Assembly (NCBI GenBank): GCA_963778155.1
Contig: CAVZTK010000021.1
Coordinates: 392,245-456,244 of the forward strand
Length of the DNA stretch: 64,000 bases
Direction of reading: 5' to 3'
DNA from: an uncultured Chloroflexia bacterium
GTDB taxonomy: Bacteria > Chloroflexota > Limnocylindria > Limnocylindrales > CSP1-4
Shown: positions 6,128-39,585 of the stretch, piece by piece
Numbering within the stretch: the stretch's first letter is position 1
How the letters are laid out: each line of letters starts with the position of its first letter
Notes under the pieces: model-generated
Seen by the model: the letters and a program-made list of their open reading frames with translations, nothing else
What the model was told of the DNA's origin: nothing
Databases searched by the model: none
Position numbers and translations under genes: made by a program

Positions 6128-6987
6128 CCGGGGACGCGGTCCCGCCCGTCCGGCACGTCACGAGCCGGCGGATCGTGGCCGTCCGCGGAGAGTCGCTCGA
6201 GGTCCGCGACGACCGCGTCGTCGGTGAGGCACCGCTCGAGATCCGGGCGGCCGGTCCTCGGCAGGACCCGGTCGCGGTCGCGGTCACGATGCGGACGCCC
6301 GGCAACGAGGCGGAGCTGGCCGTCGGGTTCCTGTGGACCGAGGGGCTGCTCGAAGGCCAGGAGGTCGTCGGCACGGCCGGCGGCGACCCGCGCTCGCTCA
6401 GCCAGCCCGACGACACGATCGTGGTCCGCCTGTCACGGCCGTTCGACGACACCAAGGTCGCCGAGCGCCATTTCGTGGCGACCGCCTCGTGCGGCATCTG
6501 CGGCAGGGCCTCGATCGACGAGGTCGCGCTCCGCGTGGCGCCACTGCCCGCCGGCCCGACCGTCGCCCGGTCGGTGATCCTCGCCCTGCCGAACCTGCTC
6601 CGTGCAGCGCAGCGTGCGTTCGACGAGACGGGCGGTCTCCACGCGGCAGGCCTGTTCAGCCCGAAGGGCGAGCTCCTTGCCCTTCGCGAGGACGTCGGCC
6701 GCCATAACGCCCTCGACAAGGTGGTCGGTTCGCAGGTGGTCGCGGGCGCCATGCCGCTCCACGAGCGGATCCTGATGGTCTCGGGACGCGTGAGCTTCGA
6801 GATCGTCCAGAAGGCGGCGGCCGCGGGGATCCCCATCGTCTGCGCCGTGTCGGCCCCGTCCGACCTGGCCATCGAGACCGCCGAGCGGCTCGGCGTCACG
6901 CTGGTCGGATTCCTGCGCGGTGACGGGTTCAACGTCTATGCGCACGATGCGAGGGTGGACCTGCGCGACCTGAGCGGACTTGGCTGA
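6115..6987 (+). CDS. fdhD: formate dehydrogenase accessory sulfurtransferase FdhD
   Basis: 290-aa ORF with the conserved FdhD core (..ATASCGICGRASIDE.., ..DVGRHNALDKVVG..). Confidence 0.9.
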   Translation: MSGLTGDAVPPVRHVTSRRIVAVRGESLEVRDDRVVGEAPLEIRAAGPRQDPVAVAVTMRTPGNEAELAVGFLWTEGLLEGQEVVGTAGGDPRSLSQPDDTIVVRLSRPFDDTKVAERHFVATASCGICGRASIDEVALRVAPLPAGPTVARSVILALPNLLRAAQRAFDETGGLHAAGLFSPKGELLALREDVGRHNALDKVVGSQVVAGAMPLHERILMVSGRVSFEIVQKAAAAGIPIVCAVSAPSDLAIETAERLGVTLVGFLRGDGFNVYAHDARVDLRDLSGLG

Positions 6988-9032: not shown

Positions 9033-10121
9033 TCAGGCCCGCGGCGGCCGATTGTTGACGAACTCGAAGCCGAAGCGGCCCTTGATGCAGAGATGGCCGT
9101 CGGTCACCGACGAATTGGTCGGCGAGGTGACCTTGACGATCCGGTCGTCCTGTTCGTGGAGCGAGACCGCGCAGCCCACCCCGCAGTACGGGCAGATCGT
9201 GTCGGTCACGGTCTGGGCGGACTCGTCCCAGGTGCCCGCCTCGCGCATGTCGTACTCGGACTTGAACATCAGCGCGCCGGTCGGGCAGACGCCGATGCAG
9301 TTGCCGCAGTAGACGCACGCCGACTCGGGCAGCGGCACGGCCTGCTCGGTCGAGATCCGTGCGTCGAAGCCGCGCCCCGCGACCGCGATGGCAAACGTGT
9401 TCTGCGCTTCCTCGCCGCACGCGTCGACGCACTTGTAGCAGAGGATGCACTTCGAGTAGTCGCGGACGTACAGGTTGTTGTCGACCTTGGTCGGCTGCGC
9501 GACCGTGGCCGCCGCCGCGTCCCCAGCAGGCGCGTGGTGGTGGCCCGCTTCGTGGCCATCGCGCTCCCCGGGCTGGGCGGGTGCCGCCGGAGGCCCGAAG
9601 CGTGCCGGGTCGGCGCCGTACCGCTCGGCATAGCCGGCGATCGAGCCGTCGGGAGCGATCGGGCCCGCCAGCGACAGATCCACCGACGACCCCAGGAATT
9701 CGAGCACCATCCGGCGCGACAGCCGGACTCGGTCGGAGTCGGTCTTGACGTCCATGCCGGCCTCGACCGGTCGCGAGCATGCCGGCACAAGCACGCGCGA
9801 CCCCGTGACCTCGACGACGCACACCCGGCAGACGTTGACCGGCGTCAGGTTCTCGGCGTAGCACAGCGTCGGGGTGTCGATGCCCTGGGCACGGCAGGCG
9901 CCAAGGATCGTCGTCCCGGCCGGGACGGTCACCGCGACCCCGTCGATCGTCAGGGCCACCGGTGGCGGCGCCTCGACCGGTGGCGGCGCGGGCGGCCGCG
10001 ACGCGCGGGCCGGTGGCGTCAGCACGATCTCGGTCAGCGGCTGGGCGGCCGGGTCCTCGCCGAGATGCGGCGCCTGCGGGTCGGGCGCGGGGTCGCGATC
10101 CATGCTCAGGCCGTCGGTCAC
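9033..10121 (-). CDS. NAD-dependent formate dehydrogenase alpha-subunit N-terminal Fe-S module (2Fe-2S + NuoG-type 4Fe-4S + MopB-type Fe4S4 domain), HoxU/HylA/FdsA-N-like; no molybdopterin domain
   Basis: 362-aa ORF: ..[18 protein letters not shown]...CRVCVVEV...[13 protein letters not shown]...[16 protein letters not shown]...[13 protein letters not shown]...[21 protein letters not shown]. It stops directly after the Fe4S4 domain, where fused FdsA proteins continue with ..HRLTKPLIR. Its start overlaps the stop of the nuoF-like gene. Confidence 0.85.
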
Positions 10122-11420
10122 AGGGCCACCATCCCGGGCTGCCGGAACGCCGACTCGATGGCCGACGATGCCGTCTGGCCCAGTCCGCAGATCGACGCGT
10201 CGCGCATGGCCTGGCCGATGTCCCGGAGGAGGACCAGCTCGTCATCGCGCGAGCGGACGTGCGACCCGGCCGCCAGCCGCGCCAGCAGCTCCTCCTGGCG
10301 GGCGCTCCCGACCCGGCACGGGACGCACTGGCCGCACGACTCGTCGCGGAAGAACTGGGCGATCCGACGCAGCGTGTCCACGAGGTCGGCTGTCTCGTCG
10401 AAGACCATGATCACGCCCGAGCCGAGCGTCGCGGCCGCCGCACGCGTCCCTTCGAAGGTCAGCGGCATGTCGAGCGCGTCGGGTCCGACGAACACGCCCG
10501 CCGCGCCGCCGAGCAGGATCGTCCGGATGGACCGGCCGCCGGGCACGCCGCCCGCCAGCTCGATCAGGTCGCGCAGCGTCGCCCCGAACTCGACCTCGTA
10601 GACGCCCGGCCGAGCGACGTGGCCGGACAGGCAGAACAGCTTCGGCCCGGTCGAGCCGTCCGTGCCGATCCGGGCGAACGCCTCGCCGCCACCGAGCACG
10701 ATGGCCGGCACGTTGGCGAGCGTCTCGACGTTGTTGACGACGGTCGGCTTGCCGAACAGCCCGACCTCGACCGGGAACGGTGGCTTGTTGCGCGGCTCGC
10801 CGCGCTTGCCCTCGATCGACTCGAACAGAGCCGTCTCCTCGCCGCAGATGTAGGCGCCCGCGCCGCGCCGGAGCTCGATGTCGAAGGCGAAGCCCGAGCC
10901 GAGGATGTCGGCGCCGAGCAGGCCCGCCTCACGGGCCCGGGCGATCGCGCCCGCGACGCGCGACTCCGCTTCCGGGTACTCGCCGCGGATGTACAGGTAG
11001 CCCTTGCCCGCGCCGGTCGCGAAGGCCGCGATGGTCATCGCCTCGACCGTGGCGAACGGATCGCCCTCGAGCAGGACGCGGTCCTTGAACGTGCCCGGCT
11101 CCGACTCGTCGGCGTTGCACACGAGGTAGTGCGGCTGCGCCGGGCTGGGTCGCGACCGCCGCCCACTTGCGGCCGGTCGGGAAGGCGGCCCCGCCGCGAC
11201 CCATCAGCTTGGACGCCGTGACCTCGGCGATGACCGCGTCGGCCCCGATCGCGAACGCCCGCTCGAGCGCCTGGTACCCGCCGTGTGCCCGGTAGTCGTC
11301 GAGCGAGGTCGGGTCGACGACGCCGATCCGACCGAGCAGATGTCGACGATCGGCGGCCGGCTGCGGGAGATCGAGTACGGCCGCCGGCCCGTTCCTGGAC
11401 GTGCCCCGACCCGGTCGCGG
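10118..11420 (-). CDS. NuoF/FdsB/HoxF-like NAD(H)-binding FMN Fe-S subunit (51-kDa type), with at least one frameshift near 11140
   Basis: The 10118..11122 frame gives ..[33 protein letters not shown].. The N-terminal ..[50 protein letters not shown] lies in the 10929..11597 frame. The junction is in a cccggc run. Confidence 0.8.
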
Positions 11421-12006
11421 CAGTCGTGGCGGTCGCCGATTCGAGCGCGGCAGTGACCCCGGCCGCATCGACCGGCGCGGCCGTCCAGGTCGTCGCCGTC
11501 TCGCCGGCGGCGGTGAACATGGCGGCCGGCGCCCGGTCGCACAGCCCGAGGCACGGACTGCGCAGCCACGTCGCGCGGCCGTCCCGGATCGGCTCACCGG
11601 CCGCCCCGACGGCCCGTGTCAGGTCAGCGCAGATCGCCTCCGCGCCGGCCAGCCGGCAGGCGATGTCGTCGCAGACATGGGCGACGACCGGTGGTCGGGG
11701 CGTCGTCGCGAAGAGGGCGTAGAACGTCGCGACGCCGTAGGCCTCGGCGGGAGCGACCGCGAGCCTCTTGCAGACGTAGTTGAGCGCGGGCGTGCTGATC
11801 CAGCCGATCCGCGACTGGATCGCGTGGAGGGCCGGGATCAGCTCCGCCCTGCGGGCGCGGATGGCATGGCCGCCGCGGGCCGCGTGGCCGTCGTTCCGCG
11901 CGTCGCGCGCCCCGCCGAACCAGCCCGAATCGGGCGGCCCGAGCACCGCGTCCACGGCGGCCCGTTCGGCCGGTGACGCGAGGGGGCCGATGACGTGGAG
12001 ATCCAT
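11420..12006 (-). CDS. NuoE/FdsG/HoxE-like 2Fe-2S thioredoxin-like subunit (24-kDa type); 3' end unresolved (possible fusion or frameshift with the nuoF-like gene)
   Basis: ATG at 12006: MDLHVIGP...ALHAIQSRIGWISTPALNYVCKRLAVAPAEAYGVATFYALF...VCDDIACRLAGAEAIC...CLGLCDRAPAAMF.. There is no in-frame stop before the nuoF-like domain begins. Confidence 0.7.
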
Positions 12007-16444: not shown

Positions 16445-17914
16445 GTGGAGATGACCATGGCTGACGAACCGGTCGCGAACGCCGCGACGCTCCAACCGCG
16501 TTCGCGCCGGCGTCGGAGCATCCTGGCGGGCGTCGTCCTCGTCCTCGCCTGCCTGTCGATCGTGCTCACCACGGTCGCGGTGTGGACACACCAGGTCGCC
16601 TTCAACACGGACCGCTTCACGGCCCTGGTGACGAATGTGGTCGCCGATCCGGAGGTCATCGACCCGCTCAGCGCCCGGATCAGCCAGCAGGTGGTCGATG
16701 CGGTCGGCGTCCAGGCGAGGATCGAGGCGCGGCTCCCGGACGCCGTGAAGCCCCTCGCCGCCTCGCTGACGGTGGCCATCCGCGACGCCATCGACAAGCG
16801 CCTGCAGGTCGCGCTCTCCAACCCGAAGGTCCAGGCGGCGCTCCTGACGTCCGTCTCGTTCACCCACGCCCAGGTCATGGCCGTCCTGCGCGGCGATCCG
16901 GACAACGTGAACATCGTCGATGGCTACGTGACGGTCGACGTCTTCCCGATCGTCGGGGCGGCGCTCCAGCAGCTCCAGGAGATCGGGCTGATCCCGGCCA
17001 ACGTCCAGCTGCCGGACCTCTCGACGCCCCAACAGCCGGGCGTCCTCGCCCAGCGCGTGGCGACGGTGCTCGGCGTGACGCTCCCCGCTGACTTCGGCAC
17101 GATCCAGCTGATGCCGGCCGACAAGCTCCTCGCCGCGCGGACCGCCGTCCAGGCGTTCGACATCATCGTCGCGGTGCTCATCGCCCTGAGCATCCTCCTC
17201 GTGGCGCTCGCGCTGTGGCTGGCCGACCGACGGCGCCGGATGGTGATCTTCCTGGCGATCGGCACGATCATCGCGTTCGTCATCGCCCGGACGCTGATCC
17301 GCGGCGCCGAGGGGGCCATCGTTGGCGGGATCGCCGACCAGGATCTCGCGGGCGCGGTGCGCACGACCCTCGACGCCGTCTTCGACGACCTGCGCGGTCT
17401 GACCCTGATCGTGCTGATCGGGACCGCGATCGTGGGCGTCGCGGCGTACCTGTGGGGCCGGCCGGCGTGGGTCGTGACCGGTGCCCAGGCCGTCGGCGGC
17501 GTGGCGGGTCAGGCAGGTTCGGCGGTCGCCGGGCAGGCCGGCGCCGGGCGGACCGGGATGACCGAGGTGGTCCGCGACAACCGGACCACCGTCGAACGCG
17601 CCGGTCTGGCCCTCATCGCCTTCATCGTCGTGTGGCTGGTGGTCGGGATCGAGGTCGCCATCCTTGCGGCGGCACTGGTTGCCGGTCTCGAGCTGGTCCT
17701 CGGGGCGATCGGGACGAAGCCGGAGGAGACGGCCGCGCCGGTCGACACGCCGCCCGCGGCGCCAGTCGAGGCGGCGCCCGTCGCGGCCGTGGAACCGCCC
17801 GCTGCAGCTCCTGCTCCGGTCGAGACGCCACCTGCCGCACCGGCTGCGACCCCGCCTGCCGCCGCGAAACGCACGAGAAGCCCGAGGACCACGAAGGGCA
17901 CCAAGGGCTCGTAA
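16445..17914 (+). CDS. integral membrane protein (hypothetical, 489 aa, intact)
   Basis: Several predicted TM helices and a C-terminal Pro/Ala-rich tail (..PPAAPVEAAPVAAVEPPAAAPAPVETPPAAPAATPPAAAKRTRSPRTTKGTKGS). It starts 7 nt after the DUF2252 stop. Confidence 0.6.
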   Translation: MEMTMADEPVANAATLQPRSRRRRSILAGVVLVLACLSIVLTTVAVWTHQVAFNTDRFTALVTNVVADPEVIDPLSARISQQVVDAVGVQARIEARLPDAVKPLAASLTVAIRDAIDKRLQVALSNPKVQAALLTSVSFTHAQVMAVLRGDPDNVNIVDGYVTVDVFPIVGAALQQLQEIGLIPANVQLPDLSTPQQPGVLAQRVATVLGVTLPADFGTIQLMPADKLLAARTAVQAFDIIVAVLIALSILLVALALWLADRRRRMVIFLAIGTIIAFVIARTLIRGAEGAIVGGIADQDLAGAVRTTLDAVFDDLRGLTLIVLIGTAIVGVAAYLWGRPAWVVTGAQAVGGVAGQAGSAVAGQAGAGRTGMTEVVRDNRTTVERAGLALIAFIVVWLVVGIEVAILAAALVAGLELVLGAIGTKPEETAAPVDTPPAAPVEAAPVAAVEPPAAAPAPVETPPAAPAATPPAAAKRTRSPRTTKGTKGS

Positions 17915-18091: not shown

Positions 18092-19261
18092 ATGATCAGA
18101 ACCCGGTGGCGCATCGCAGCCGCAGGCGCCTCGTTGTTCATGCTCGGTCAGCTCGTCCTTGCCGCCCCGGTCGGGGCGACGACTGGTCAGGCGACGGTGA
18201 CCGCCGACATGCCATCTGCCGTGCCGGCTGGCCGGCTCTGGAGCTTCAACGATTTCTTCCCGCGGACAGTCACGGTGAAGACCGGATCCGACCTCCAGTT
18301 CACGAACGAGGGGTTCCATACGTTCACGGTCCTCCCGGCCGGCGACACGGCGAAGCAGGACTGGCAGACGAACGGCGCCGCCATCGACGATACCGACGAC
18401 ACCGCGCTCAACCCCAATGGCACGACCCACGCGGCATTCAATATCCCGGCGCTGCTGCCGACCTGCGGGCCGGCGCCGCTACCGTCGTGCACGTTCGACG
18501 GGAGTTCGACCATCAACATCAGCCCACTAGGCCCTCCCGGTCCGGTCGACGTCCACGTCTCTGCCGATCCCGGGACGTATGTCTTCATCTGCCGGATCCA
18601 TCCGGGCATGAGCGGCACGCTCAAGGTCGTCGCGGCCAACGCGAAGGTCCCGAGCCAGACGCAGGTCGATCAGCAGGTCAGCAAGCAGGTCGACAAGGAC
18701 CTGAAGGGCGCGTGGCAGGCCGACAAGAAGGCCAACCACGACGCGATCACTCAGAACAAGGATGGGTCGCGGACGCTGCACGTGACAGCAGGCACGTCGA
18801 GCAAGGACGGCAAGGTGGCGCTGCTCGAATTCTTCCCCCGCAACCTTGATGCCAAGCCCGGTGACAAGGTCGTCTTCACGCCGCGCTCGCCGAACGAACC
18901 CCACACCGTGACCTTCCCGATGGACTTCGGGACCGACATGATCAACCTCTGCGAGGACGGATCGTCGGATACGCCGTTCGGGCCTCCCGATTTCTCGTGT
19001 CCCGACCACCCAGGTCAAGGGCCCGACGAGGTCGAATTCGATGGCGGCAACGGCGTCTCGCATGTGACCCAACCGGGTCTCGACGGCACCGTCTCCGATT
19101 CGGGCACGATCGGGTCGCCGAAGGTCGCCAAGGGCTTCGGCATCCGCCAGAGTGACGTCCTGGGTTCGTGGACGATCTCGCTGAGTGGCGCGGCGCCGGG
19201 TACCTACACGTACGTCTGCCAGATCCACGACGGGATGGAGGCGACCATCACCGTCCACTGA
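18092..19261 (+). CDS. secreted two-domain cupredoxin (blue type-1 copper protein)
   Basis: Signal peptide MIRTRWRIAAAGASLFMLGQLVLAAPVGA, then two cupredoxin folds with C-terminal copper-ligand motifs (..YVFICRIHPGMSGTLKV.. and ..YTYVCQIHDGMEATITVH*). The ORF track starts it at 18002. Confidence 0.8.
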   Translation: MIRTRWRIAAAGASLFMLGQLVLAAPVGATTGQATVTADMPSAVPAGRLWSFNDFFPRTVTVKTGSDLQFTNEGFHTFTVLPAGDTAKQDWQTNGAAIDDTDDTALNPNGTTHAAFNIPALLPTCGPAPLPSCTFDGSSTINISPLGPPGPVDVHVSADPGTYVFICRIHPGMSGTLKVVAANAKVPSQTQVDQQVSKQVDKDLKGAWQADKKANHDAITQNKDGSRTLHVTAGTSSKDGKVALLEFFPRNLDAKPGDKVVFTPRSPNEPHTVTFPMDFGTDMINLCEDGSSDTPFGPPDFSCPDHPGQGPDEVEFDGGNGVSHVTQPGLDGTVSDSGTIGSPKVAKGFGIRQSDVLGSWTISLSGAAPGTYTYVCQIHDGMEATITVH

Positions 19262-19325
19262 CGGTCGACCGTCACAGCGCGATGGCCCGGGCTCAGGTCC
19301 GGGCCGTCGCCTTGTCCGGGATCGG

Positions 19326-21249
19326 TCAGACCGTCGCCGGCTCCGCCAGCTTCTCGATGCGGATGGCCGTCGCCTTGAACTCGGCCGTGCCCGACTTCGG
19401 GTCCGTCGCGTCGATCGTCAGGAGGTTGACCGCGACCTCGTCCTGGAAGTGCAGCGTCATGAACGTCAGGCCCGGCCGCAGCGACGGGTCGATCCGGATC
19501 GGGACCTCGACCTGGCCGCGGCGCGAGACGACCCGGACCCGCTCGCCTTCCGCCAGCCCGTAGGTCAGGCGTCCTCGGGGCTGATGTCGAGGCTCTCGCC
19601 GCGGCGCAGCGGCGAGGTGTAGCCGCCGGTCTGGACGCCGGTGTTGTACGAGTCGAGGCGGCGGCCGGTCGTCAGCCGGATCGGGAAGTCGTCGTCGAGC
19701 CGGTCGACCGGCGGGTCGTGGTCGACCGGCACGAACGGCACGCGATTGCCGGGGACCGGGTCCTCCCACAGCCGGGAGTGGAGGAACAGCTCGCCCGGAT
19801 GCGTCTCGTCGTAGCACGGCCACTGGATCCCGCCGAGCTCCTCGAGCCGCGTGTAGCTCATCCCGGCATGGACCGGCGACAGGCGTCGGACCTCGTCCCA
19901 GACGGCTTCGGCGTCGGCCTCGCCCCAGTCGTGCGCCCATCCGGTCGCGCGAGCTCGAAGATGATCGCCAGGTCGTCGCGCGCCTCGCCGGGCGGCTCGA
20001 GCGCCTTGCGGACGCGCTGGACGCGCCGCTCGGAGTTGGTGACCGTCCCCTCGGATCTCGGCCCAGGCGGCGGCGGCCGGCAGGACGACGTCGGCGAGCT
20101 CGGCGGTCTTGGTCAGGAACATGTCCTGGACGACGAGGAAGTCGAGGCCCGACAGGAGCTGCGATCGTCCGCTGCTGGTCGGCCTCGGACTGGACCGGGT
20201 TCTCGCCGATGACGTAGACCGCGGTCAGGTCGCCGCGCTCCATGGCGTCGAACATGCCCGACAGGTGCCAGCCCCGCTTGCGGGGGCACGGGGACGCCCC
20301 AGTCGGCATCGAACTTGCGCGCGCAGCGCGTCGTTCTCGACGTGCTGGAAGCCCGGCAGCCGGTCGGGCAGGGCGCCCATGTCGCCGCCGCCCTGGACGT
20401 TGTTCTGGCCGCGCAGCGGGTTGACGCCGCTGCCGTACCTGCCCGACGTGACCGGTCAGCAGCGACCAGCGAGATCAGCGCCAGCACGTTGTCGACCGCG
20501 TTGTGGTGCTCGGTGATGCCGAGCGTCCAGCAGATCATCGCGCGCGGTCGCGGTCGCGTAGGCGTGCGCCAGCTCGCGGATGGCCTCGGCCGGGACGCCC
20601 GTCTCGCGCTCGGCGTACTCGAGCGTGTACGGCTCGACCTTGGCCTTGTAGGCCTCGAAGCCGCTCGTCGCGCGGTCGATGAACTCGCGGTTCTCGAGCC
20701 CGGCGGCGATGATCTCGCGCGCCGACGGCGTTGGCCAGCGCGATGTCGCTGCCGACGTCGAGGCCGAGCCAGACGTCGGCCCACTCGGCGCGAGCTCGTC
20801 CGGCGCGGGTCGACCGCGTACAGCCGCGCGCCGCGGTGGACGCCCTTGCAGCAGGTGGTGGAAGAAGATCGGATGCGTCTCGCGGGCGTTGCTGCCCCAC
20901 AGGACGATCAGGTCCGTGTCTTCGACCTCGCGATATGAGCTTGTGCCGCCCCCGGCACCGAACACGGTCGCCAGACCGGCGACGCTAGGGGCGTGTCAGG
21001 TCCGGTTGCAGCTGTCGATGTTGTTGCTGCCCAGGACCGCCCGGCTGAACTTCTGGGCCGCGAAGTTGACCTCGTTGGTCGCCTTCGAGCAGCTGAAGAT
21101 GCCGAATGTCGTCGGGCCGTGGGCCGCCTTCGCGGCCACGAACCCGGCGACGGTCCGGCGAGCGCCTCGTCCCAGGTCGCCGGTCGGAGCTCGCCGCCCT
21201 TCGTGTCGCGGACGAGGGGCTGGGTCAGTCTCAGGTAGGGCTTCGCCAC
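19326..21249 (-). CDS. selenocysteine-containing molybdopterin formate dehydrogenase catalytic subunit (FdhF/FdsA C-terminal part; Sec codon TGA at 20996-20998), heavily frameshifted (at least 10 frame changes)
   Basis: GTG at 21249 preceded by AGGAGG: [30 protein letters not shown].. Then ..[48 protein letters not shown]-[TGA][49 protein letters not shown].. Later conserved blocks in shifting frames (..[24 protein letters not shown].., ..[16 protein letters not shown].., ..[84 protein letters not shown].., ..[30 protein letters not shown].., ..[29 protein letters not shown].., ..[70 protein letters not shown]) all align to FdhF. Confidence 0.8.
20967..20983 (-). promoter_or_regulatory. bacterial SECIS hairpin (fdhF type) 12 nt downstream of the Sec UGA
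   Basis: mRNA: UGA CACGCCCCUAGC GUCGCC-GGUCU-GGCGAC. This is a perfect 6-bp stem with a GGUCU apical loop, as in E. coli fdhF (..GCAGGUCUGC..), at the canonical distance from the UGA. Confidence 0.6.
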
Positions 21250-21365
21250 GCGGTGGCCTCCTGCGGGTTTCGACGACGTGGCGAGTGTAGCCCTCGGACG
21301 CTTGCCCGACGAGGATCCCCGACCGACCATGGGGTTGTCGGATAGCAGAGCTAGGTGCGCGATCG

Positions 21366-21881
21366 GTGATCCTCCCCAAGGTCCGGGATCCGCGGTTCAT
21401 CACGGTGCGTCGCGGTGGCAGCCTCGCGGACGACGATCATCGGTTGCTCGCGGTATGGGCGGCCGACTGCGCGGCGCACGTGCTGCACCTTTTCGAGGCG
21501 GTCCGGCCCGGCGATGACCGACCGCGCCGGGCGATCGACCTCGGCCGTGCCTGGGCGCGGGGCGACATCACATGGGCAGAGGCCCGCACAGCGGCGGGCC
21601 ACGCCAACGCCGCGGCCAGGGACCTGAGGGGCGCTGCGCGGCATGCCGCGTATGCCGCCGGACAGGCCGCCGCGGTGGGCCATGTCGCGGCCCACGAGCT
21701 CGGCGCCGCGGCCTACGCCATCAAGGCGGCGCGTGCTGCCGCGACCGACGATGAAAGCGAGGCGGCCCGCCATCTCGAGTGCCAGTGGCAGCGTGCCCAG
21801 CTCCCCGAGGAGATCCGCGAGCTGGTGCTCGACGACGAGCGGCTGCGCAACGAGCTGTGCTGGTTCGTGTTCGACCCCTGA
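21366..21881 (+). CDS. conserved hypothetical protein (171 aa)
   Basis: Intact ORF divergent from the FDH catalytic gene (MILPKVRDPRFITVRRGGSLADDDHRLLAVWAADCAAHVLHLFE...). It resembles a small family often mis-annotated as SbcC or immunity-like proteins; the assignment is uncertain. Confidence 0.5.
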   Translation: MILPKVRDPRFITVRRGGSLADDDHRLLAVWAADCAAHVLHLFEAVRPGDDRPRRAIDLGRAWARGDITWAEARTAAGHANAAARDLRGAARHAAYAAGQAAAVGHVAAHELGAAAYAIKAARAAATDDESEAARHLECQWQRAQLPEEIRELVLDDERLRNELCWFVFDP

Positions 21882-21922: not shown

Positions 21923-24101
21923 TCAGCGGTCGTCGTCGCGGTTCGGTGGGGCCAGGAAGACGCGGAACAGGACGATGAAGCTCACGATCAGGGTGATGCC
22001 GAAGGCGATCATCGCCAGGTAGGCGAACCCCTGGAACTGCGTCAGCGATGGCTGGAGCAGGATGGCCATCACGATGGCCGTCCCGATCAGCTGGCCGACG
22101 ACGATCACCCCGACCGTCGCCTGGCGCCCGATGTCGCTCACGCTCGAGATCGACTTCTCGAGCCCCTTGGTGTCCACCTCGACAACGAACTTGCCCTTGT
22201 TGTACTGGTCGAGCCAGCTGAGGGTCGCGCTCTCGAGTGACGGGAGCCGTCGAGCGAGCTCCTTGCCGATCCGGACCGCGCTGCCCTGGACCTGCTTCTG
22301 GATCTTGTCGGGGGTGAACGATTCGAGCAGGGCGGCCCTGGCCTCGGTCACGGCCGCATCGCCCAGGTCGATGTCGAACGACAGCGCGCGGGCCGTCTCC
22401 TCGGCCTGGATGACCGCCTTCATCGCCAGCGTCAGCTGGCTGTCGAGCTGCAACCCGTTGTTGAAGACCGCACCGAGGAAGGCACCGAGCGCGTCCCCGA
22501 GTGACGAGGCCTTGCCGTAGACGAGGTACTGGCGGGCAAGCCGGTCGATGTCGGCGCGAAATCCCGCCTCGTCGAAGCCGCGGGAGGGCTTGCCGAGCGC
22601 GAGGAGGCCGTCACCGATCCCGGGGATGTCGACCTCCTTGATCGAGTAGATCAGCCCGAGCAGGTCGACTCGCTGCTGTGACGTGAGCTGGCCGACAAGA
22701 CCCAGGTCGAGGAACACGATCTGGCCCGTCTCCGGCACCACGAAGACATTGCCGGGGTGCGGGTCGCCGTGGAAGAACCCGTCGATCAGGACCTGCTTGA
22801 TGATCGCCCGGATGAACACAGTGCCCAGCTCGGTCGTATCGAAGCCCGCGGCACGGATCTCATCGGCCTTGGAGATCTTGATGCCGTGGATGAACTCCTC
22901 GGTCTTGACCCGCTGGCCCGAGAATTCGTCGTAGACGATCGGCACGTGGATCTGCGGGAACCGCTGCATCCCGTCGGCGAGCCGCTTCGCGTAGTACGCC
23001 TCGTTGCGGTAGTCGAGCTCCTTGAGCACGCCCTGGGCGAACTCGCGGACGATCCCCTGGAGGCCGATCTTGCGGGCGATGGCGAGCCGCTGCTCGGCGA
23101 CACCGGCGAGCTGCTGCGCGACGCCCAGGTCGGCCTGCGTCTTGGCCACGATCCTCGGCCGCTGGACCTTGACCGCGACGAGCGTCCCGTCCATGAGCCG
23201 CGCCTCGTGGACCTGTGCTGTCGATGCGGCGGCGAAGGGGACCGGGTCGAACGTCTGGTACAGCTCCTCTGGCGGCTTGCCGAGCTCCTTGACGATGGTG
23301 GCGACCACGTCCTCGTAGGCGAACGGCTGCCGCGTCGCTCTGGAGCTTGGACAGCTCCTCGATCCATTCAGGCGGCAGGATGTCGCTCCGGCTGGCCATC
23401 ATCTGGCCGATCTTCACGTAGGTCGGACCGAGCTGCTGGAGCATCTGCCGGATGCGCGCGGGCGCCGTCTCGTCGGTGAGGTCCGGCGTCTCGCCGAGGA
23501 CCCGGCGCGCGAACCAGCGCCGGACGTCGCCGACCGGCGTGTCGGCCAGCGCGATGTCGAGGCTGGTCGTGTAGATGGCGCTGTAGACCTGCTGCAGCCG
23601 GAGGTTCTCGATGATCGCGTTCCGCCGCGGCGTGGGCAGGCGCTCGAGGAAGCCCCAGATCCCGCGGCTGCGGTCGGCCGACAGATCCGGCCGGTTCAAG
23701 CCGAGCACGGCTTCGGTCACGGTGGAGAGGGCCGTGTACAACGCCGCGCCGACGATGATCCACAGGAACACGGGGTCCGCGACGATGCCGATCTTGATCG
23801 GGGCGATGATCGAGGTGATCCAGATCGCGATGGCATTGATGATCACGACGAACAGGCCGAGCGTGGTGAACAGCAGCCGGCCGAACAGGGCGACCAGGAC
23901 GGGCCGGGCGAACCGGTTGACCAGGACGAGGACCGCCGCCCACGTCGCGAAGCCGATGATCCCGGCGCCACGGAGCGCCACGATCGGGGCGCTGTTCGGG
24001 CCGAACGGGAACGGTTGATTGATCGAGATGACGCCGAAGAACAGGACGATGACCGCGAGGAGGACCGTGTCGATCACGACCTCGACCAGGAAACGACGCA
24101 T
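21923..24101 (-). CDS. UbiB/ABC1-family atypical kinase with an N-terminal four-TM (PF04020 holin-IV-like) domain, with a frameshift near 23330
   Basis: N-terminal MRRFLVEVVIDTVLLAVIVLFFGV...(4 TM), then ..LQQLGPTYVKIGQMMASRSDILPPEWIEELSKLQ in the 22860 frame. It continues in the 21923 frame (..VATIVKELGKPPEELYQTFDPVPFAAASTAQVHEARL...DGFFHGDPHPGNVFV..DLGLVG..) with C-terminal TM helices. Confidence 0.75.
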
Positions 24102-24193: not shown

Positions 24194-25259
24194 TCAGACG
24201 AGGCTGACCCCGGGCTCCCCGGCGGCCACGCTCCCGATCCACCAGCGCTCGACACCTGCGGCGTCGAATGCCGCCTCCAGCGCATCGACGCTGTCGGGCG
24301 CGACCGCCGCGAGGAGACCGCCCGACGTCTGCGGATCGTGGGCCAGCGTGACGAGGTCGGCCGGCACATCGGCGCCGACCGCGAGGGAGCCCGCGACGAA
24401 GCGGCGGTTGTGGGCCGCACCGCCGGTCTCGACGCCGGCCGCCGCGAGGTCGCGCGCGCCGGCGAGGGCGGGCAGGGCCGCTGCCTCGAACAGGAACCGG
24501 GTCCCCGACGCACGCGCCATCTCGAGGCCGTGGCCGAGCAGGCCGAAGCCGGTGACGTCGGTCGCCGCGGAGATGCCGGCCGCGACGAGCACCTCGGACG
24601 CCGTCCGGTTGAGGCGGCGCATCCCGGCGATCGCGGCGGCCAGGTCAGCCGCGCTGGTCCTGCCCTGGCGCGAGCCCGACACGAGGACGCCGGTGCCGAG
24701 CGGCTTCGTCAGCACGAGCCTGATCGCCCGGCCGGGCGCCGCCCTTGCGCAGCAGCCTGTCGGGGTGTGCCGCACCGATGACGGCCAGCCCGTACTTGGG
24801 TTCGGGGTCGCGGATCGTGTGGCCGCCCGCCAGCGTGCCACCCGCCTCGCGGACCGTGGCCGACGCACCCGCGAAGATCTCGGTCATGATCTCGCGCGGC
24901 AGCTCCTCGGGGAATGCCGCGATCGACAGCGCGAACAGGACCCGGCCGCCCATCGCGAACACGTCCGACAGGGCATTCGCCGCGGCGATCTCACCGAACG
25001 TCCTCGGGTCGTCAACGAGCGGCGGGAAGAAGTCGAGCGTTCCGATGATGGCGAGGTCGTCACCCACCCGGTAGACGGCGGCGTCGTCGGGCGGATCGAG
25101 GCCGGCGATCAGCGAAGCGTCCGGATCGGCGGCGGCCTCCGCTCCGAGCCCGGCCAGCGCCTCGGCCAGCAGGTCCGCCCCGAGCTTCGCGGCGCAGCCG
25201 CCGCAATCGGTCAGGTCGGTGAGGCGGATGGGGTCGGTCTCGATGGCGGTCATGAGCAC
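24194..25259 (-). CDS. selD: selenide, water dikinase SelD (selenophosphate synthetase), Cys form, with a frameshift near 24720
   Basis: MLMTAIETDPIRLTDLTDCGGCAAKLGADLLAE..AVYRVGDDLAIIGTLDFFPPLVDDPRTFGEIAAANALSDVFAMGG.. (24645 frame) continues as ..RLVLTKPLGTGVLVSG...TDVTGFGLLGHGLEMARASG.. (24194 frame). Confidence 0.85.
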
Positions 25260-25280: not shown

Positions 25281-25376
25281 CCGGGAGCGGTCGGGTCCCG
25301 GTGGGTCCCCTGGTCTTCAAAACCAGTGGCGCGGCGCTCGGCGCGGCGCGGTGGGTTCGACTCCCACGCGTTCCCG
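25281..25376 (+). tRNA. selC: tRNA-Sec (anticodon UCA), 96 nt plus encoded CCA (to 25379)
   Basis: GGGAGCGGTCGGGTCCCGGTGGGTCCCCTGGTCTTCAAAACCAGTGGCGCGGCGCTCGGCGCGGCGCGGTGGGTTCGACTCCCACGCGTTCCCGCCA: 8-bp acceptor stem, long variable arm, anticodon loop cT-TCA-Aa, T-loop GGTTCGACTCC. It sits between selD and selA. Confidence 0.85.
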
Positions 25377-25393
25377 CCACGGAGGACCTCGAC

Positions 25394-26802
25394 TTGTCCG
25401 AACGCCCACGACCACCGAGCGTCGAGCGACTGCTGACGGTCGTGCGCCCGCGGCTCGGCGCCGACGTCGCACCCGATGCGCTCGCGGCGGTGGCACGCGA
25501 GGTCATCGCCGACGAGCGCGCCCGTCTCGACGACGGGGGAGCCGCCGACGCCGGCCGGCCTTGACGTGTTGGCGGCGACGGTCGTGGCACGACTTGCGGC
25601 CTTCGCCGACCCGGCGGGGAGCGGCCTGACCCCCGTCCTCAACGCGACCGGCGTCGTGCTGCACACGAACCTGGGCCGAGCACCGTGGCCACGGGTCGCG
25701 ATCGAGGCCGCGATGCGGGCGGCGGGTGGCTACTCGCTGCTCGAGTTCGAGCGCGAGGCCGGCCGCCGCGGACCGCGCTTCCGGGTCGCCGAGGAGCACC
25801 TCATCGCGCTGACCGGGGCCGAGGATGCGCTGGTCACGATCAACAACGCGGCGGCGGTCGCGCTGGCGGTCGGGCTGGCCGGGACGCACGGGGTCGCGGT
25901 CTCGCGCGGCGAGCTCGTCGAGATCGGCGGTGGCGTGCGGATCCCCGAGATCGTGCGGCGGACCGGCGCCCGGCTCGTCGAGGTCGGGCACCACCAATCG
26001 GACACGCGCGGGCGACTTCGAGGCGTCGCTGGCCGACGGCCGCGCGACGGTCGTCCTCCGCGTCCATCCATCGAACTTCGCCCAGACCGGCTTCGTCGAG
26101 GCGCCCGACCCGATCGAGCTCGCACGCCTCGCCCACGCGCACGGCGCGATCGTCATCGACGACCTCGGGAGCGGCGCGCTGCTCGAGACGTCCGTGTTCG
26201 GGTTGGCCCACGAGCCGACGCCGCGCGAGCGGCTGGCTGCCGGCGCCGACCTCGTCACGTTCAGTGGCGACAAGCTGGTCGGCGGGCCACAGGCGGGGCT
26301 CATCGTGGGGCGGGCCGACCTCATCGCCCGGATCCGGAAGGACCCGCTCGCCCGCGCGGTCCGGCCGGAGAAGGTGACGCTGGCCGCGCTGGCCGCGACC
26401 CTGGGCCTGTATCGGGCGGGTCGTGCGGTCGCGGACATCCCCGTCTGGCAGATGATCGCGGCCACGCCCGGGACGCTCGGGAGACGCGCCGATGCGCTGC
26501 TCGCCGGGTTGCCGTCCCAGGCCCGGGCACGCGTGTCCGTGACCGAGATGGACTCGGCGGTCGGCGGCGGGTCGCTGCCCGGCGAGACGCTCGAGTCGGT
26601 CGGCCTGGTCGTGACCGGGGGCGGCCCCGACGCGCTCGCGCGCAGGCTTCGGACGGGCGATCCGGCCGTCGTCGCCCGGGTCCAGGACGGCGCGGTGCTG
26701 CTCGACCTGCGGACGATCGATCCGGCCGACGACGCGGCGCTCGGGGCGGCCCTGGCCCGGGCGCTCGCCCCGCGTGATCGTCGCGCCGCCGACCCGGGAT
26801 GA
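25394..26802 (+). CDS. selA: L-seryl-tRNA(Sec) selenium transferase SelA, with frameshifts near 25560 and near 25990
   Basis: TTG at 25394 with GGAGGA 7 nt upstream. Blocks ..[18 protein letters not shown].., ..[14 protein letters not shown].. and ..[40 protein letters not shown]...[18 protein letters not shown].. lie in three frames. The PLP-Lys motif FSGDKL is present. The stop overlaps the selB ATG (ATGA). Confidence 0.85.
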
Positions 26803-28674
26803 CCGTCGTCGTCGGGACCGCGGGGCACATCGACCACGGCAAGACCACGCTCCTGCGGGCGCTGACCGGGATCGACGCCGACCGTCTGCCCGAAGAGCGG
26901 CGGCGGGGGATGACCATCGACGTCGGCTATGCCCACCTGATCCTGTCCAGTGGCGAGGCCATCGATTTCGTCGACGTCCCGGGCCACGACCGGCTGGTCG
27001 GCAACATGCTGGTCGGGGCCGGCGAGATCGACGCCGCACTGCTGGTCGTGGCCGCCGACGACGGCCCGCGCGCCCAGACGGTCGAGCACCTCGCGCTGCT
27101 CGACGCGCTCGGCGATCCGCGACGGCATCGCGGTCGTGACCAAGGCCGACGTCGCCGGCCCGGAGCGGACGGCCGAGGTGGTGGCCGCCGTCGGCCGGCT
27201 GCTCGACGGGACGTCGCTGGCCGGCTCGCCGGTCGTGGCGGTCTCGGCGGTGAGTGGCGAGGGGCTGGGGGCGGTGCGGATCGCGCTCGCGGACCTCAGC
27301 GCGCGGGTCGCCATGCGGGCGGCGGGTTCGGTGCCGGTCACGACGGCCGCCGGTGCGCGCCTCGCCATCGATCGCGTCTTCGCGGTCAAGGGTCGTGGCG
27401 TGGTCGTGACCGGCACGCTGCGCGGCGGATCGATTGCCCGAGGCGCCGTCCTGCGTCTCGTGCCCGGCGACGGGTCCGCCCGCGTCCGCGAGGTCCAGGT
27501 CCACAACGCCCCCGTCGAGGTCGCCGGGCCGGGTCGCACCGCGCTGAACCTCGCCGGAGTCGACGCGGGCGATCTCCATCGCGGCCTGGTCCTGACCGAC
27601 GACCCGTCCGTCCTGGTGAGCGACCGGATCCTCGTCAGGCTCGCCTCGGTCCTGCCCGACCGCGCTCGGGCCCGGGTCCACCTCGGGACAGCAGCCGCAG
27701 ATGCGAGCGTGGGACGGAACGGGCGCGACGCCCTCGAGCTGCCCGACGGGACGAGCGGCGCCATCGTTCGCCTCGCGACGCCCGTCGCGGTCGCGGCGGG
27801 CGACCGCCTGGTGCTGCGCCGAACGTCGGGTGCGGAACGGATCGTCGGGGCGGTCGTGCTCGATTCGGTGCCGGCTCGCGGCATCTCGCGCCGCCGTCAG
27901 ACGCCGGAGCGGGTCACTCGGCTCAGCGCCGCCGTCGAGGCCGGCGACGGTCCGGCGATCGAGGCTGCCAGGCTCGACCTCCACGGGGTGCTCCCGCCGA
28001 TCGGGCCCGGACCGCTCCGGATCGCCGCGGACATCGAGACCGCGGCCGAAGATCACGTGCTGACCGCGGTCGATCCGGAGCTGGACCTGCCCGGGGCTCG
28101 GGTGGTCGCCGCGACGGCACTCCGCCGGCGCGCGACGATCGACCGTTCCGCCGCCGCAACGGCCGGGGCCGCCCTCGTCGACCGGCTCGTCACGGACGGC
28201 CGGCTGGTCCGTGACGGGGCGACGGTCCGCCGGCCGGGGGCCGGTCCGCTCCCGCCGGTCCCGGACCCCACGCTCGCCGCCGCGATGACTCGCCTGGAAA
28301 GCGCTCTCGCGGTCACCGCGCCGCCACCGCTGGCGAACGCCGCGCGAGCAGCCGGCTGCCCGCCCGACGCCGTCCGCGCACTCGAGCGGGCCGGCCGGAT
28401 CGTCGTCCTCGAGCCGGACCTCGCCTACACGACCTCGACCTATCGCGAGATCGCGGCGATCGCCGTCGACGCCGCCCGCCGCGGACCGCTGACCCCGGCG
28501 GCGCTGCGTGATGCCACCGGGTCGAGCCGGAAATACGTGATGGCCATCCTGGCCGACCTCGACCGGCGCGGGATCCTGCGCCGGACCCCGGACGGCCATC
28601 TGCCCGGGCCGAGGGCCAACACGGGCATCGGCGCCGAGGCTGCCGGGAGCGGCACCCTGACCAAAGCCCGATGA
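26799..28674 (+). CDS. selB: selenocysteine-specific translation elongation factor SelB, with a frameshift near 27110
   Basis: [71 protein letters not shown]-(one extra G)[13 protein letters not shown].., EF-Tu-like domains II/III, and C-terminal winged-helix SECIS-binding domains (..[21 protein letters not shown]..). Confidence 0.9.
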
Positions 28675-29255
28675 CCCGCGCCGACGTGACCGCGATCGTG
28701 CTGGCCGGCGGCCGATCGAGCCGGTTCGGTCGCGACAAGCTCGCCGAGCCGATCGACGGCCGCCCACTGCTCCATCACGCCATCGAGGCCGTCCGCCCCG
28801 TCGCCGGTCGGATCCTCGTGGTCGTCGCACCCGATGCCGCGCCGATCCTGCCGACGGGCACGACGTTGATCCACGACCCGACTCCTTTCGACGGGCCGCT
28901 CGCCGGCCTGCTCGCAGGCCTGCGTGCCGCCTCCGACCCGGTCGTGGTCGCGATCGGTGGCGACACGCCGGCGCTCGTCGCCGCGGTCATCGGGTCGATG
29001 CTCGTCGCGCTCGACTCCTCGGGCGTCGACGCGGTCGTCCTCGAGCACCACGGCCGCGCACGGCCGCTGCCCATCGTCCTCCGCCGCGAGCCGGCGGTCG
29101 CCGCGGCGTCGAGCCTCCGTGCCAATGGTGAACGGCGGCTGCGGGCGATGACCGAGGTCCTTGCCACCGAGCTCGTCCCCGAGGCAGCCTGGCGATCGCT
29201 CGACCCGGACGGCGTGACCCTCCGCGACATCGACACGCTCGCCGACCTGCCGTAG
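28671..29255 (+). CDS. mobA: molybdenum cofactor guanylyltransferase MobA
   Basis: Intact 194-aa ORF (..AIVLAGGRSSRFGRDKL..LIHDP..GPLAGL..), in an ATGA overlap with selB. Confidence 0.85.
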   Translation: MTRADVTAIVLAGGRSSRFGRDKLAEPIDGRPLLHHAIEAVRPVAGRILVVVAPDAAPILPTGTTLIHDPTPFDGPLAGLLAGLRAASDPVVVAIGGDTPALVAAVIGSMLVALDSSGVDAVVLEHHGRARPLPIVLRREPAVAAASSLRANGERRLRAMTEVLATELVPEAAWRSLDPDGVTLRDIDTLADLP

Positions 29256-34268: not shown

Positions 34269-35465
34269 ATGCTCAGGATCATCCACACCGCGGACGTCCA
34301 TCTCGGCGCGCGGCACGACGATCTCGGTGAGCAGGCGGCCGCCCAGCGGGAACGTCAGTTCGCGGCGTTCAAGGCCGCAGTCGACCTGGCGCTGACCGAG
34401 AAGGTCGACCTGTTCCTGATCGCGGGCGACCTGTTCGACTCGAACATGCAGCCGCGCCGCTCGGTCGAGCGGGTCGCGGCCGAGCTCGCCCGCCTGGCCG
34501 AGTCGCGGATCCGGACCGTCATCATCCCGGGCACCCACGACGTCTTCGACCGCGCGTCGATCTATCGAGCGTACGACCTCGCCGCGATGGCCGGTGTCAC
34601 CGCCGCGACGGCCGCCGAGCAGCTGGTCACCGTCCTCGACCCGGATCACCCGTCGGTCCACCTCGTCGCGCTCGAGACCGTCGTCCACGGCCGGGTCTTC
34701 GCCGACCAAGCGTGCGCCGCACAGCCCGCTGCAGGACGTCGCCGCCGACGTGGCCGCCGCGCGCGCCGACGAGAAACCTGTCACGTGGCACGTCGGGATG
34801 GTCCACGGCTCGATCGCCATCCCGGGCAAGACCGACCGCGACGAGGTCGTGATCACGACCGAGGAGATCGCCGCGACGGGGCTCGACTACCTCGCCCTCG
34901 GGTCACTGGCACTCCGCCCAGAGCGGCAAGGCCGGGACCGTCGCGTACGCGTATTCCGGCGCCCCGGAGGCGGTCGCCCTCGACCAGGACCGGGCGGGCA
35001 AGGTCCTGCTGGTCGAGCTCGACGAGAAGGCCGGCAAGCGGACCACGACGATCGAGGAGCGACAGGTCGGACGGACCCGGTTCACCAAGCTCGAGGTCGA
35101 TGCCGCCACGGTCGCCAGCCAGCCGGCCCTGGTCGACCTGCTGTCGGCCCAGACCGATCCGGACCTCGTCCTCGACGTCCGGCTGGTCGGCGTCCGCCGG
35201 GACGAGCTCGACCTCGACCTCGATGAGATCGAAGTGGCCCTGGCGCCCGCCTTCCTCAAGGTCCGCGTCCGCGACGCCTCGGTGCCGGCGCTGACTGAGG
35301 GTGCGCTGCCGTCCCCGGACACGATGGCCGGGCGCGTTCATCCGCGACCTCGAGGCGCGGATCGCCGAGCTCGAGGCCGCCGGCTCCACCGCCGAGGCCG
35401 CCGAGCAGCGCGACGCCCTTCGGCTCGGCCGGCTGCTCCTCGCGGGCCACGAGGTCACGCTGTGA
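34269..35465 (+). CDS. SbcD/Mre11-family nuclease (YhaO-like metallophosphoesterase), with frameshifts near 34700 and near 34900
   Basis: MLRIIHTADVHLGARHDDLG..DLFLIAGDLFDS..VIIPGTHDVFD.. The middle segment (..VTWHVGMVHGSIAIPGKTDRDEVVITTEEIAATGLDYLALG..) and the C-terminus (..LLAGHEVTL*) lie in other frames. The stop overlaps the next gene's GTG (GTGA). Confidence 0.75.
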
Positions 35466-39471: not shown

Positions 39472-39585
39472 GTCGCCGGCGTCGAGCTTGACCCATTTCG
39501 TCCCGGCAGCCGCGGAACGCGTGCCGGCTCGACCATGTTGCCCGATGACGTAGACGACGTCGCCCCCGATGATACGCGCCGGCGG

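Follow-up and report, generated by a model that had tools for sequence, protein, structure and literature searches.

An earlier note on this DNA, a 64,000-nucleotide stretch (the window), recorded that the minus-strand open reading frame 20996..21403 ends at a TGA and took this triplet for a selenocysteine (Sec) codon in a formate dehydrogenase (FDH) gene. The end at TGA is as recorded. Does the triplet encode Sec or terminate a protein, and what is to be made of a gene whose frame is broken on both sides of it?

The TGA at the active site of a formate dehydrogenase

A comparison with intact homologues shows 14 frame changes in the FDH gene between 21249 and 19326, due to 12 single-base insertions and 2 single-base deletions. 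With the insertions removed and the deletions filled, the gene has 637 codons, from a GTG start (21249-21247) to a stop codon at 19328-19326 on the minus strand (Table 1). The frame-corrected protein matches PF00384 over positions 1-352/353 (E = 1e-69) and PF01568 (E = 1.5e-26). Its best NCBIfam match, TIGR01591 (Fdh-alpha), scores 655.8 bits against an equivalog cut-off of 666.25, with 53-672 of the profile covered; positions 1-50 find their match in a separate Fe-S subunit (47.8 bits, residues 302-351). The closest solved structures are all formate dehydrogenases (T. kivui HDCR FdhF, E. coli FDH-H and R. capsulatus FdsA). Taken jointly with the account of the frame shifts given below, these matches make it probable that the gene encodes the catalytic Mo/W-bis-pterin subunit of a Sec formate dehydrogenase.

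Table 1 Features of the window discussed in the text
Feature	Position	Strand	Evidence
Catalytic (molybdopterin) subunit, predicted Sec formate dehydrogenase	19326..21249	-	PF00384, PF01568, TIGR01591
Ribosome-binding site AGGAGG, 7 nt upstream of GTG start	21257..21262	-	Read from sequence; AGGAGG aligned in L001 and L002
In-frame TGA, predicted Sec codon 85 of the subunit	20996..20998	-	TGA in 78/78 loci; aligned to FDH-H Sec140
Candidate SECIS apical hairpin GUCGCC-GGUCU-GGCGAC, from 12 nt after UGA	20967..20983	-	Fold, synonymous conservation, fdhF offset
Cluster of 12 single-base insertions	19932..20849	-	DNA alignments to L001-L016; codon-model HMM frame switches
fdhD-like sulfurtransferase or chaperone for FDH	6181..6978	+	tblastn with L001 FdhD (PF02634), 68.6% identity over 280 aa
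Fe-S subunit, N-terminal part of split FDH alpha, intact	9048..10103	-	tblastn with L001 protein; NCBIfam
NuoE/NuoF-like (FdsG/FdsB-like) diaphorase subunit	10121..12006	-	tblastn, three frames; DNA alignment to L016
selD, selenophosphate synthetase, Cys form (CGGC), frame shift near 24718	24194..25253	-	Translation, HMM switch; stitched protein TIGR00476 354.9 bits, cut-off 125
selC, tRNA-Sec, anticodon UCA, intact	25283..25379	+	ARAGORN; Rfam RF01852 65.5 bits, cut-off 47
selA, selenocysteine synthase, frame shifts near 25534 and 26006, start approximate	25385..26802	+	Translation; stitched protein TIGR00474 433.3 bits, cut-off 267.9
selB, Sec-specific elongation factor, frame shift near 27110	26799..28674	+	Translation; stitched protein TIGR00475 293.4 bits, cut-off 242.25
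mobA-like (molybdenum cofactor guanylyltransferase), overlaps selB stop codon, intact	28671..29255	+	Translation; name from sequence appearance only

In the alignment to E. coli FDH-H, the TGA falls on Sec140, and H86 and R278 fall on His141 and Arg333, so that the catalytic His and Arg are conserved. The earlier note had named Cys at this codon in close relatives, with a hairpin that is not conserved, as the evidence that would count against Sec. What we found favours Sec: the codon is TGA in all 78 of the related genomic loci that could be checked, with no other stop and no sense codon, and the hairpin downstream is kept. By analogy with the E. coli paradigm, UGA codon 85 would be recoded as Sec, which would ligate the metal.

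If the TGA were instead a true stop, two products would be made separately, a short N-terminal peptide and, from the C-terminal part, a protein of 542 aa. Public gene calls look like this, as homologues are annotated as proteins of 541-554 aa beginning downstream of the TGA, and L002 has a further call, an 84-aa upstream open reading frame. We consider such an arrangement scarcely credible, given that the TGA coincides exactly with the metal-ligand position inside one continuous Molybdopterin domain, that it is invariant across the loci, that the hairpin is conserved at synonymous sites and that Sec machinery lies adjacent. In this abundant soil FDH family, automatic annotation systematically truncates the product at the UGA and leaves fragments as the public gene calls.

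A conserved hairpin and the selenocysteine genes

The hairpin that the earlier note described twelve nucleotides downstream of the UGA is present. Its 17 nt comprise GTCGCC (20983-20978), GGTCT (20977-20973) and GGCGAC (20972-20967), and a 21-mer folds as a 6-bp stem with a 5-nt loop (-10.6 kcal/mol, z = -2.8). Folding of the region after the UGA, which had been proposed as a check, supports the hairpin at this length but not at 41-59 nt, where minimum free energies are no better than those of shuffles (z = -0.8 to -1.2) and the 59-nt optimum disrupts the hairpin; single-sequence folding is uninformative in RNA of 72% GC. We regard the hairpin as more than chance because it is conserved in homologues, not because of how the single sequence folds.

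Among 68 homologues, codon entropy across hairpin codons +5 to +9 is 0-0.37 bits, compared with 1.4-1.85 bits in the flanking four-fold codons. All six stem pairs can form in each of 69 sequences (the 68 homologues and the window), 16 of them through G.U wobble, and two amino-acid changes in homologues (A to V and T to A) keep the stem paired via G.U. Double-sided covariation in the stem was absent among the 69 sequences, in which the stem hardly varies. The pattern argues for selection at the RNA level across the 68 homologues.

Bacterial SECIS elements, by the criteria of bSECISearch and the E. coli literature, are stem-loops right after the UGA with an apical loop about 16-37 nt away and G/U in the loop. 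The window hairpin agrees with this description in position, as its GGUCU loop begins 18 nt after the UGA, and in loop content; a gathering-threshold Rfam scan of the whole window returned tRNA-Sec only and no SECIS family match. The likeness to the E. coli fdhF SECIS that had been claimed holds in part. In both genes the V-A-G-L codons form the hairpin, with the GGUCU(G) loop (GGTCTG in the DNA) equally far from the UGA, but the window stem is a perfect 6-bp helix closed by a 5-nt loop, without the bulged U of the E. coli fold. This upper-stem U (U17) matters for E. coli SelB. A lower stem back to the UGA, unlike in E. coli, is not conserved: pairing of GACACG (including the GA of UGA) with CGUGUU is predicted in the window, but all 6 pairs can form in only 27 of the 69 sequences, and we rejected it as a family feature.

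selD, selA and selB flank the tRNA-Sec gene, and their products pass equivalog cut-offs after stitching; as given, each gene carries one or two frame shifts. The statement that the window holds the target, its cis element and the full trans machinery together is thus right as to gene content, which is complete, but three of the four sel genes are frameshifted. In a scheme borrowed from E. coli, SelB carrying Sec-tRNA(Sec) would bind the 17-nt hairpin, and selC, selD, selA and selB, 3-8 kb away, would supply tRNA, selenophosphate, Sec synthesis and delivery.

Sequence errors or gene decay

The insertions in the FDH gene lie at about 20849, 20790, 20728, 20549, 20464, 20440, 20317, 20287, 20161, 20056, 19947 and 19932, and the deletions, outside this cluster, at about 21158 and 19567, each site being placed to within about 8 nt. 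Beyond the TGA, the frame had been said to continue without interruption, which is true for only some 49 codons, to about 20849. Because the deletion near 21158 lies upstream of the TGA, ORF 20996..21403 is mostly out of frame; as the sequence stands, translation from the true GTG start (21249) would arrive at the TGA in another frame. A codon-model HMM places about 20 frame switches of the same kind elsewhere in the window. Those mapped at base level, in the NuoE/F-like and UbiB-like genes, are also +1 insertions, and the SbcC/D-like genes hold a second cluster.

Errors of sequencing or of the assembly consensus, for example from long-read metagenome assembly, most likely account for the 14 indels and for comparable +1 shifts of selA, selB, selD and further genes, and the gene would then be intact in the real organism; we hold this explanation as a whole, including the Sec-FDH assignment, with good confidence. 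Once corrected, the gene has no stop except the Sec TGA and ends at the same stop codon as its homologues. The corrected protein matches 154 of 154 invariant columns and 279 of 279 columns that are at least 95% conserved, and dN/dS against relatives is 0.14-0.24, compared with 0.12-0.21 among intact relatives. It is because the conserved columns are all matched and dN/dS is normal that we favour error over decay. The nearest syntenic relatives are MAGs from Nanopore data (PMC12313526), and in one of them, L003, the Fe-S subunit gene is itself interrupted by frame breaks. Exact look-ups of the proteins of three intact ORFs of the window (transketolase with two alternative starts, and the 444-aa ORF at 46402-47736) returned no match, and neither did an exact 45-mer from the 5' region of the FDH gene among metagenome contigs. 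Two observations count against error. The FDH gene carries 14 indels in 1.9 kb, about ten times the density in neighbouring genes (~0.6 per kb), and most insertions fall outside homopolymers, which is not the classic pattern of Nanopore errors. When the sequence around the indels was inspected, neither a motif nor a homopolymer accounted consistently for the inserted bases.

In bacteria, genes that decay naturally tend to accumulate deletions. The 12 insertions against 2 deletions, the absence of any change in the 279 conserved columns, the lack of an extra stop and a dN/dS like that of intact relatives led us to reject ordinary pseudogene decay. Real indels would mean a fresh pseudogene cluster, in which the Sec-FDH, selA, selB, selD and other genes were inactivated very recently as the Sec trait was lost. 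The 14 shifts in the FDH gene, those in each of the three sel genes and documented cases of bacteria losing selenoproteins and the Sec trait (PMC1794560) would fit such an event. We nonetheless think it very unlikely: selection shows no sign of relaxation, neutral accumulation of 14 indels would be expected to bring dozens of substitutions, many at conserved sites, the insertion bias is opposite to that of bacterial pseudogenes, the same kind of shift occurs in unrelated genes (UbiB-like, SbcC/D-like and NuoE/F-like), and the tRNA-Sec gene is intact. The most specific version, in which an unusual +1-insertion process marks the first step in losing the Sec trait together with its only client enzyme, before substitutions have accumulated, is highly improbable.

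The clustering may have a cause within the error explanation. Reads of related populations could have been collapsed onto a conserved gene during assembly or polishing, a specific form of error that we put forward only tentatively and think doubtful. DNA-level conservation of the FDH gene across species is unusually high, and its nucleotide identity of 86-90% to several MAGs would favour cross-mapping; the indels also cluster within 920 nt, compared with 0-2 in neighbouring genes. Against a strain mixture, no mosaic pattern was detected in the corrected sequence, and a second group of shifts occurs elsewhere, in the SbcC/D-like genes. This sequence is not to be read as it stands, and any gene calls or metabolic inference (formate oxidation, selenium use) from it need the corrected frame.

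A split-subunit enzyme and its relation to known systems

The earlier note found the gene unusual on the premise of a high-GC actinobacterial host, in which selenoproteins are uncommon. This taxonomic premise is wrong. The closest and the syntenic relatives are Chloroflexota MAGs labelled Limnocylindria or Limnocylindrales, and the window genome is best described as Chloroflexota-like (Limnocylindria-like) by these affinities. The argument from rarity fails on the family as well, which has at least 8000 homologues in public genome and metagenome proteins. The homologues listed come mainly from soil or groundwater metagenomes and MAGs, and the family occurs widely in Chloroflexota, Acidobacteriota and other groups of soil and groundwater. 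The best metagenomic homologues have 88-90% amino-acid identity to the catalytic subunit (L003, about 90%).

The catalytic ORF contains no Fe4S4 (FS0) domain. We considered and rejected an N-terminal truncation by deletion, as homologues share the start and the domain is encoded by a separate gene, at the C terminus of the Fe-S subunit, which ends exactly where the homology of the catalytic subunit begins. The Fe-S subunit combines 2Fe-2S and 4Fe-4S clusters and a Molybdop_Fe4S4 domain with a NuoG/HoxU-like N terminus (NCBIfam). It is encoded nearby in 63 of 82 loci, most copies stopping within about 20 codons of the Fe4S4 domain end; the alpha subunit is split across the family. The NuoE/F-like gene carries about two +1 insertions that shift its frame, near 11343 and near 11141, and its L001 homologue carries the Pfam domains 2Fe-2S_thioredx, Complex1_51K and NADH_4Fe-4S.

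These genes suggest a multi-subunit FDH of the FdsABG kind with a split alpha subunit. The catalytic subunit probably works with the Fe-S subunit, which would supply the Fe4S4 domain that is fused in other FDHs, and probably also with the NuoE/F-like subunit, a partner that suggests an NAD-linked enzyme; FdhD and MobA probably serve cofactor maturation. The assignment to Sec-containing FdhF/FdnG therefore stands for a Sec FDH catalytic subunit but not for the subtype, given the NuoE/F-like and separate Fe-S partners. A Sec-dependent, probably NAD-linked FDH with alpha split just after Fe4S4, widespread in soil Chloroflexota and Acidobacteriota, is a milder novelty than real indels would be, and better supported.

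The translated region aligns with both FdhF and FdsA, a check that the earlier note had proposed. It shares 39% identity over 623 aa with E. coli FDH-H (FdhF), with which it has the Mo-bis-pterin FDH fold in common, the UGA at the equivalent of Sec140, and the conserved counterparts of His141 and Arg333. The window protein lacks the fused N-terminal Fe4S4 domain of FdhF, and FdhF is a monomer attached to hydrogenase 3, in contrast to the NuoE/F-like and Fe-S partners here. The metal ligand of FdsA is Cys, compared with the predicted Sec of the window enzyme. With the NAD-dependent FdsABG enzymes (Rhodobacter capsulatus, 6tg9/6tga; Cupriavidus necator) the likeness lies in the catalytic domain, which aligns with residues 308-932 of FdsA (E = 7e-128), and in a neighbourhood with a diaphorase gene resembling NuoE/F, an Fe-S module resembling NuoG, and fdhD. 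In solved structures the FdsA chain measures about 958 aa and includes the Fe-S module, whereas alpha in the window is divided between a 352-aa Fe-S protein and a 637-aa catalytic protein whose genes lie about 9 kb from each other, and the NuoE and NuoF parts are fused.

Among bacterial selenoproteins FdhA is the most common; it is often the sole selenoprotein of a genome and lies near sel genes, and Chloroflexi and Acidobacteria are listed among the phyla with selenoproteins (Zhang et al. 2006, PMC1794560). The window is biologically a textbook case of FdhA with a conserved SECIS and adjacent sel genes: an ordinary Sec-containing FDH gene with its recoding hairpin and nearby Sec machinery, a known kind of system. 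Compared with the Sec-decoding trait anchored by FdhA (PMC1794560), nothing essential differs; the window adds a further lineage, Limnocylindria-like Chloroflexota, and the split-subunit architecture.

Selenocysteine codon and recoding hairpin

In this GC-rich window (71.6%), a TGA at 20996-20998 closes the minus-strand ORF 20996..21403, and past it the frame reads on as [49 protein letters not shown]. Twelve nucleotides 3′ of the TGA, GTCGCC (20983-20978), GGTCT (20977-20973) and GGCGAC (20972-20967) form a hairpin, and the hairpin 21-mer folds with a 6-bp stem and a 5-nt loop (−10.6 kcal/mol; z = −2.8 against shuffles). On the TGA and the hairpin themselves the earlier note was correct. In the corrected gene (see below) the TGA is codon 85 and the sole in-frame TGA; it aligns to Sec140 of E. 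coli FdhF (reference sequence from NC_000913.3), with His141 and Arg333 conserved.

The TGA is the codon preceding HAPSV in all 78 related loci that could be checked, and is never replaced by a Cys codon or another stop. These loci come from metagenome-assembled genomes (MAGs) of Chloroflexota, Acidobacteriota, Rokubacteria/Methylomirabilota and Planctomycetota, and the Sec codon was left out of the query and search patterns used for the count. Across 68 homologues, the synonymous entropy of the hairpin codons GTC GCC GGT CTG GCG is 0, 0, 0.37, 0 and 0 bits, against 1.4-1.85 bits for flanking four-fold codons (Ala, Pro, Ser, Thr, Val and Gly). All six stem pairs are kept in 69 of 69 sequences (the homologues and the window), and change in the stem is limited to GCC to GUC and ACN to GCN, which replace the amino acid yet preserve pairing through G.U. 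Double-sided covariation was absent from the stem in these 69 sequences because the stem is almost invariant. Selection here acts on the structure of the RNA and not on the protein, as the codon and pairing comparisons show. In E. coli fdhF, GGTCTG lies at the identical offset from the TGA, but the bulged U of that SECIS is absent here; also unlike E. coli, the lower stem is not conserved, the one predicted for the window being fully formed in 27 of the 69 sequences.

Frame breaks in the catalytic gene

The earlier note had the frame running on without interruption, which is not borne out: it is broken 14 times, and the gene as sequenced here does not form an intact ORF. Three-frame translation of 19200-21450 gives formate dehydrogenase (FDH)-like sequence that switches frame every ~20-120 codons, a codon-model HMM splits 19341-21249 into 13 minus-strand segments, and in a GC3 frame plot no long stretch of the window other than 19951-21691 lacks a consistent frame of 240 nt or more. 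DNA alignment to intact homologues (86-90% nucleotide identity) placed 12 single-base insertions (~20849, 20790, 20728, 20549, 20464, 20440, 20317, 20287, 20161, 20056, 19947 and 19932) and 2 single-base deletions (~21158 and 19567). Since one deletion sits upstream of the TGA, most of ORF 20996..21403, the one quoted in the earlier note, lies out of frame. The gene's actual start codon is the GTG at 21249, with AGGAGG (21262-21257) in front of it; in the sequence as given, reading from this GTG never meets the TGA in frame. Editing the 14 positions in the gene (19326-21249, minus strand) yields 637 codons ending at the same stop codon as in the homologues.

Neutral decay of the gene makes a prediction that failed. 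Assuming at least ~5 substitutions per indel, a rough estimate, 14 neutral indels predict several tens of substitutions, ~20 of them in conserved columns, where none was seen: the corrected protein matches 154 of 154 invariant columns and 279 of 279 columns conserved at 95% or more (68 homologues). Its dN/dS against four relatives is 0.14-0.24, compared with 0.12-0.21 among intact relatives, and the corrected frame contains no extra stop codon. The usual indel bias is deletional, the reverse of the 12 insertions and 2 deletions found here.

The same kind of event recurs elsewhere in the window, mostly as +1 insertions where the DNA could be aligned. The NuoE/F-like gene has such insertions at ~11343 and ~11141, and selD, selA (twice) and selB carry similar frame shifts. 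Switches without a stop at the junction lie at 8721, 11141, 11343, 13859, 14603, 15108, 15297, 23328, 24718, 25534, 26006, 27110, 39573-39813, 43256 and 44923. The lack of junction stops suggests single-base indels in many window genes; the junctions checked on DNA (11141, 11343 and 23328) are all +1 insertions. A second cluster of ~6-7 switches lies at 34.7-37.0 kb, within 34359-37721 (+), in genes that by motif appearance may encode an SbcD-like metallophosphoesterase and an SbcC/Rad50-like ATPase.

On the most economical reading, the window's indels would be errors in the assembly consensus. A Nanopore-only MAG catalogue with one Medaka polishing round (PMC12313526) is the source of the closest syntenic relatives. 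In the closest of them, L003 (Nanopore MAG MFD03602.bin.2.14), the Fe–S subunit gene (16701-17754) aligns to the intact protein of the window in several reading frames, so that record has frame breaks too. Consensus error does not account for the density in the FDH gene (14 in 1.9 kb, roughly 10 times the ~0.6 per kb of neighbouring genes), nor for the position of most of its indels outside homopolymers.

Selenium genes and host lineage

Once stitched over the breaks in frame, the SelD, SelA and SelB proteins comfortably exceed their NCBIfam equivalog cut-offs. The core reading of the earlier note, a Sec-encoding FDH gene with a SECIS and sel genes, is right and strongly supported at the family level. 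The UbiB-like gene, which has one +1 insertion in the DNA alignment (~23328), occupies the same position in the related locus L016.

Features of the window around the Sec-encoding gene
Feature	Position	Strand	Remarks
fdhD	6181-6978	+	
Fe–S subunit	9048-10103	-	352 aa
NuoE/F-like subunit	10121-12006	-	
UbiB/ABC1-kinase-like gene	21926-24101	-	between fdh and selD; N-terminal membrane segment
selD	24194-25253	-	Cys form; divergent from tRNA-Sec; switch at 24718
tRNA-Sec	25283-25379	+	
selA	~25385-26802	+	switches at 25534, 26006
selB	26799-28674	+	switch at 27110
mobA-like gene	28671-29255	+	after selB

Labels on the MAGs that hold the best related loci (85-90% amino acid identity) read Chloroflexia, Chloroflexota or Candidatus Limnocylindria/Limnocylindrales, and several of these MAGs are syntenic over much of 2.6-33 kb of the window at 70-88% nucleotide identity. 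The high-GC actinobacterial host assumed in the earlier note, and the argument from rarity attached to it, are unsupported; the system belongs to another phylum. Selenoproteins are known in both Actinobacteria and Chloroflexi, and FdhA is the commonest bacterial selenoprotein (PMC1794560).

A split alpha subunit and its relation to known enzymes

The corrected protein combines a full-length Molybdopterin domain (PF00384, 1-352/353) with a Molydop_binding domain (PF01568). The Fe–S subunit has a C-terminal Molybdop_Fe4S4 domain ([10 protein letters not shown]...[14 protein letters not shown]), and the catalytic Sec subunit, encoded ~9 kb away, picks up at the next conserved motif, RLTQPLVR. Because the Fe–S protein ends exactly where the homology of the catalytic subunit begins, the alpha subunit is split. 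The split is a trait of the family: the Fe–S gene is nearby in 63 of 82 loci, most of these genes stopping within ~20 codons past the domain end. It explains why the best NCBIfam match, TIGR01591 (Fdh-alpha; 655.8 bits), falls just below the cut-off of 666.25, as the match lacks positions 1-52 of the profile. In one relative (L001 6898-7595; L002 2365-3062), a PIN/PhdYeFM toxin–antitoxin pair separates the catalytic gene from its NuoE/F-like and Fe–S partners.

At least 8000 candidate homologues were found, all at E ≤ 1e-20. The best 120 listed, from an abundant soil and groundwater FDH family, are fragments 541-554 aa long (87-90% identity, 84-86% query coverage), and their automatic gene calls open after the Sec UGA. 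Where the source gives a label, it is 'formate dehydrogenase major subunit' or 'YjgC'; P0021 is a 'molybdopterin-dependent oxidoreductase, partial'.

Among solved structures the nearest are all formate dehydrogenases, namely T. kivui HDCR FdhF, an F420-dependent FDH, E. coli FDH-H and R. capsulatus FdsA. The partners encoded in the window, which are the NuoE/F-like subunit, the Fe–S subunit and FdhD, liken the enzyme to NAD-linked FdsABG and not to FdhF or FdnG, the subtype and subunit architecture named in the earlier note, and it may accordingly depend on NAD. The window's Sec-encoding FDH is a typical case of a system already known; the only mildly new aspect is its Sec-dependent design with a split alpha subunit, together with the systematic truncation of this design in public annotation.
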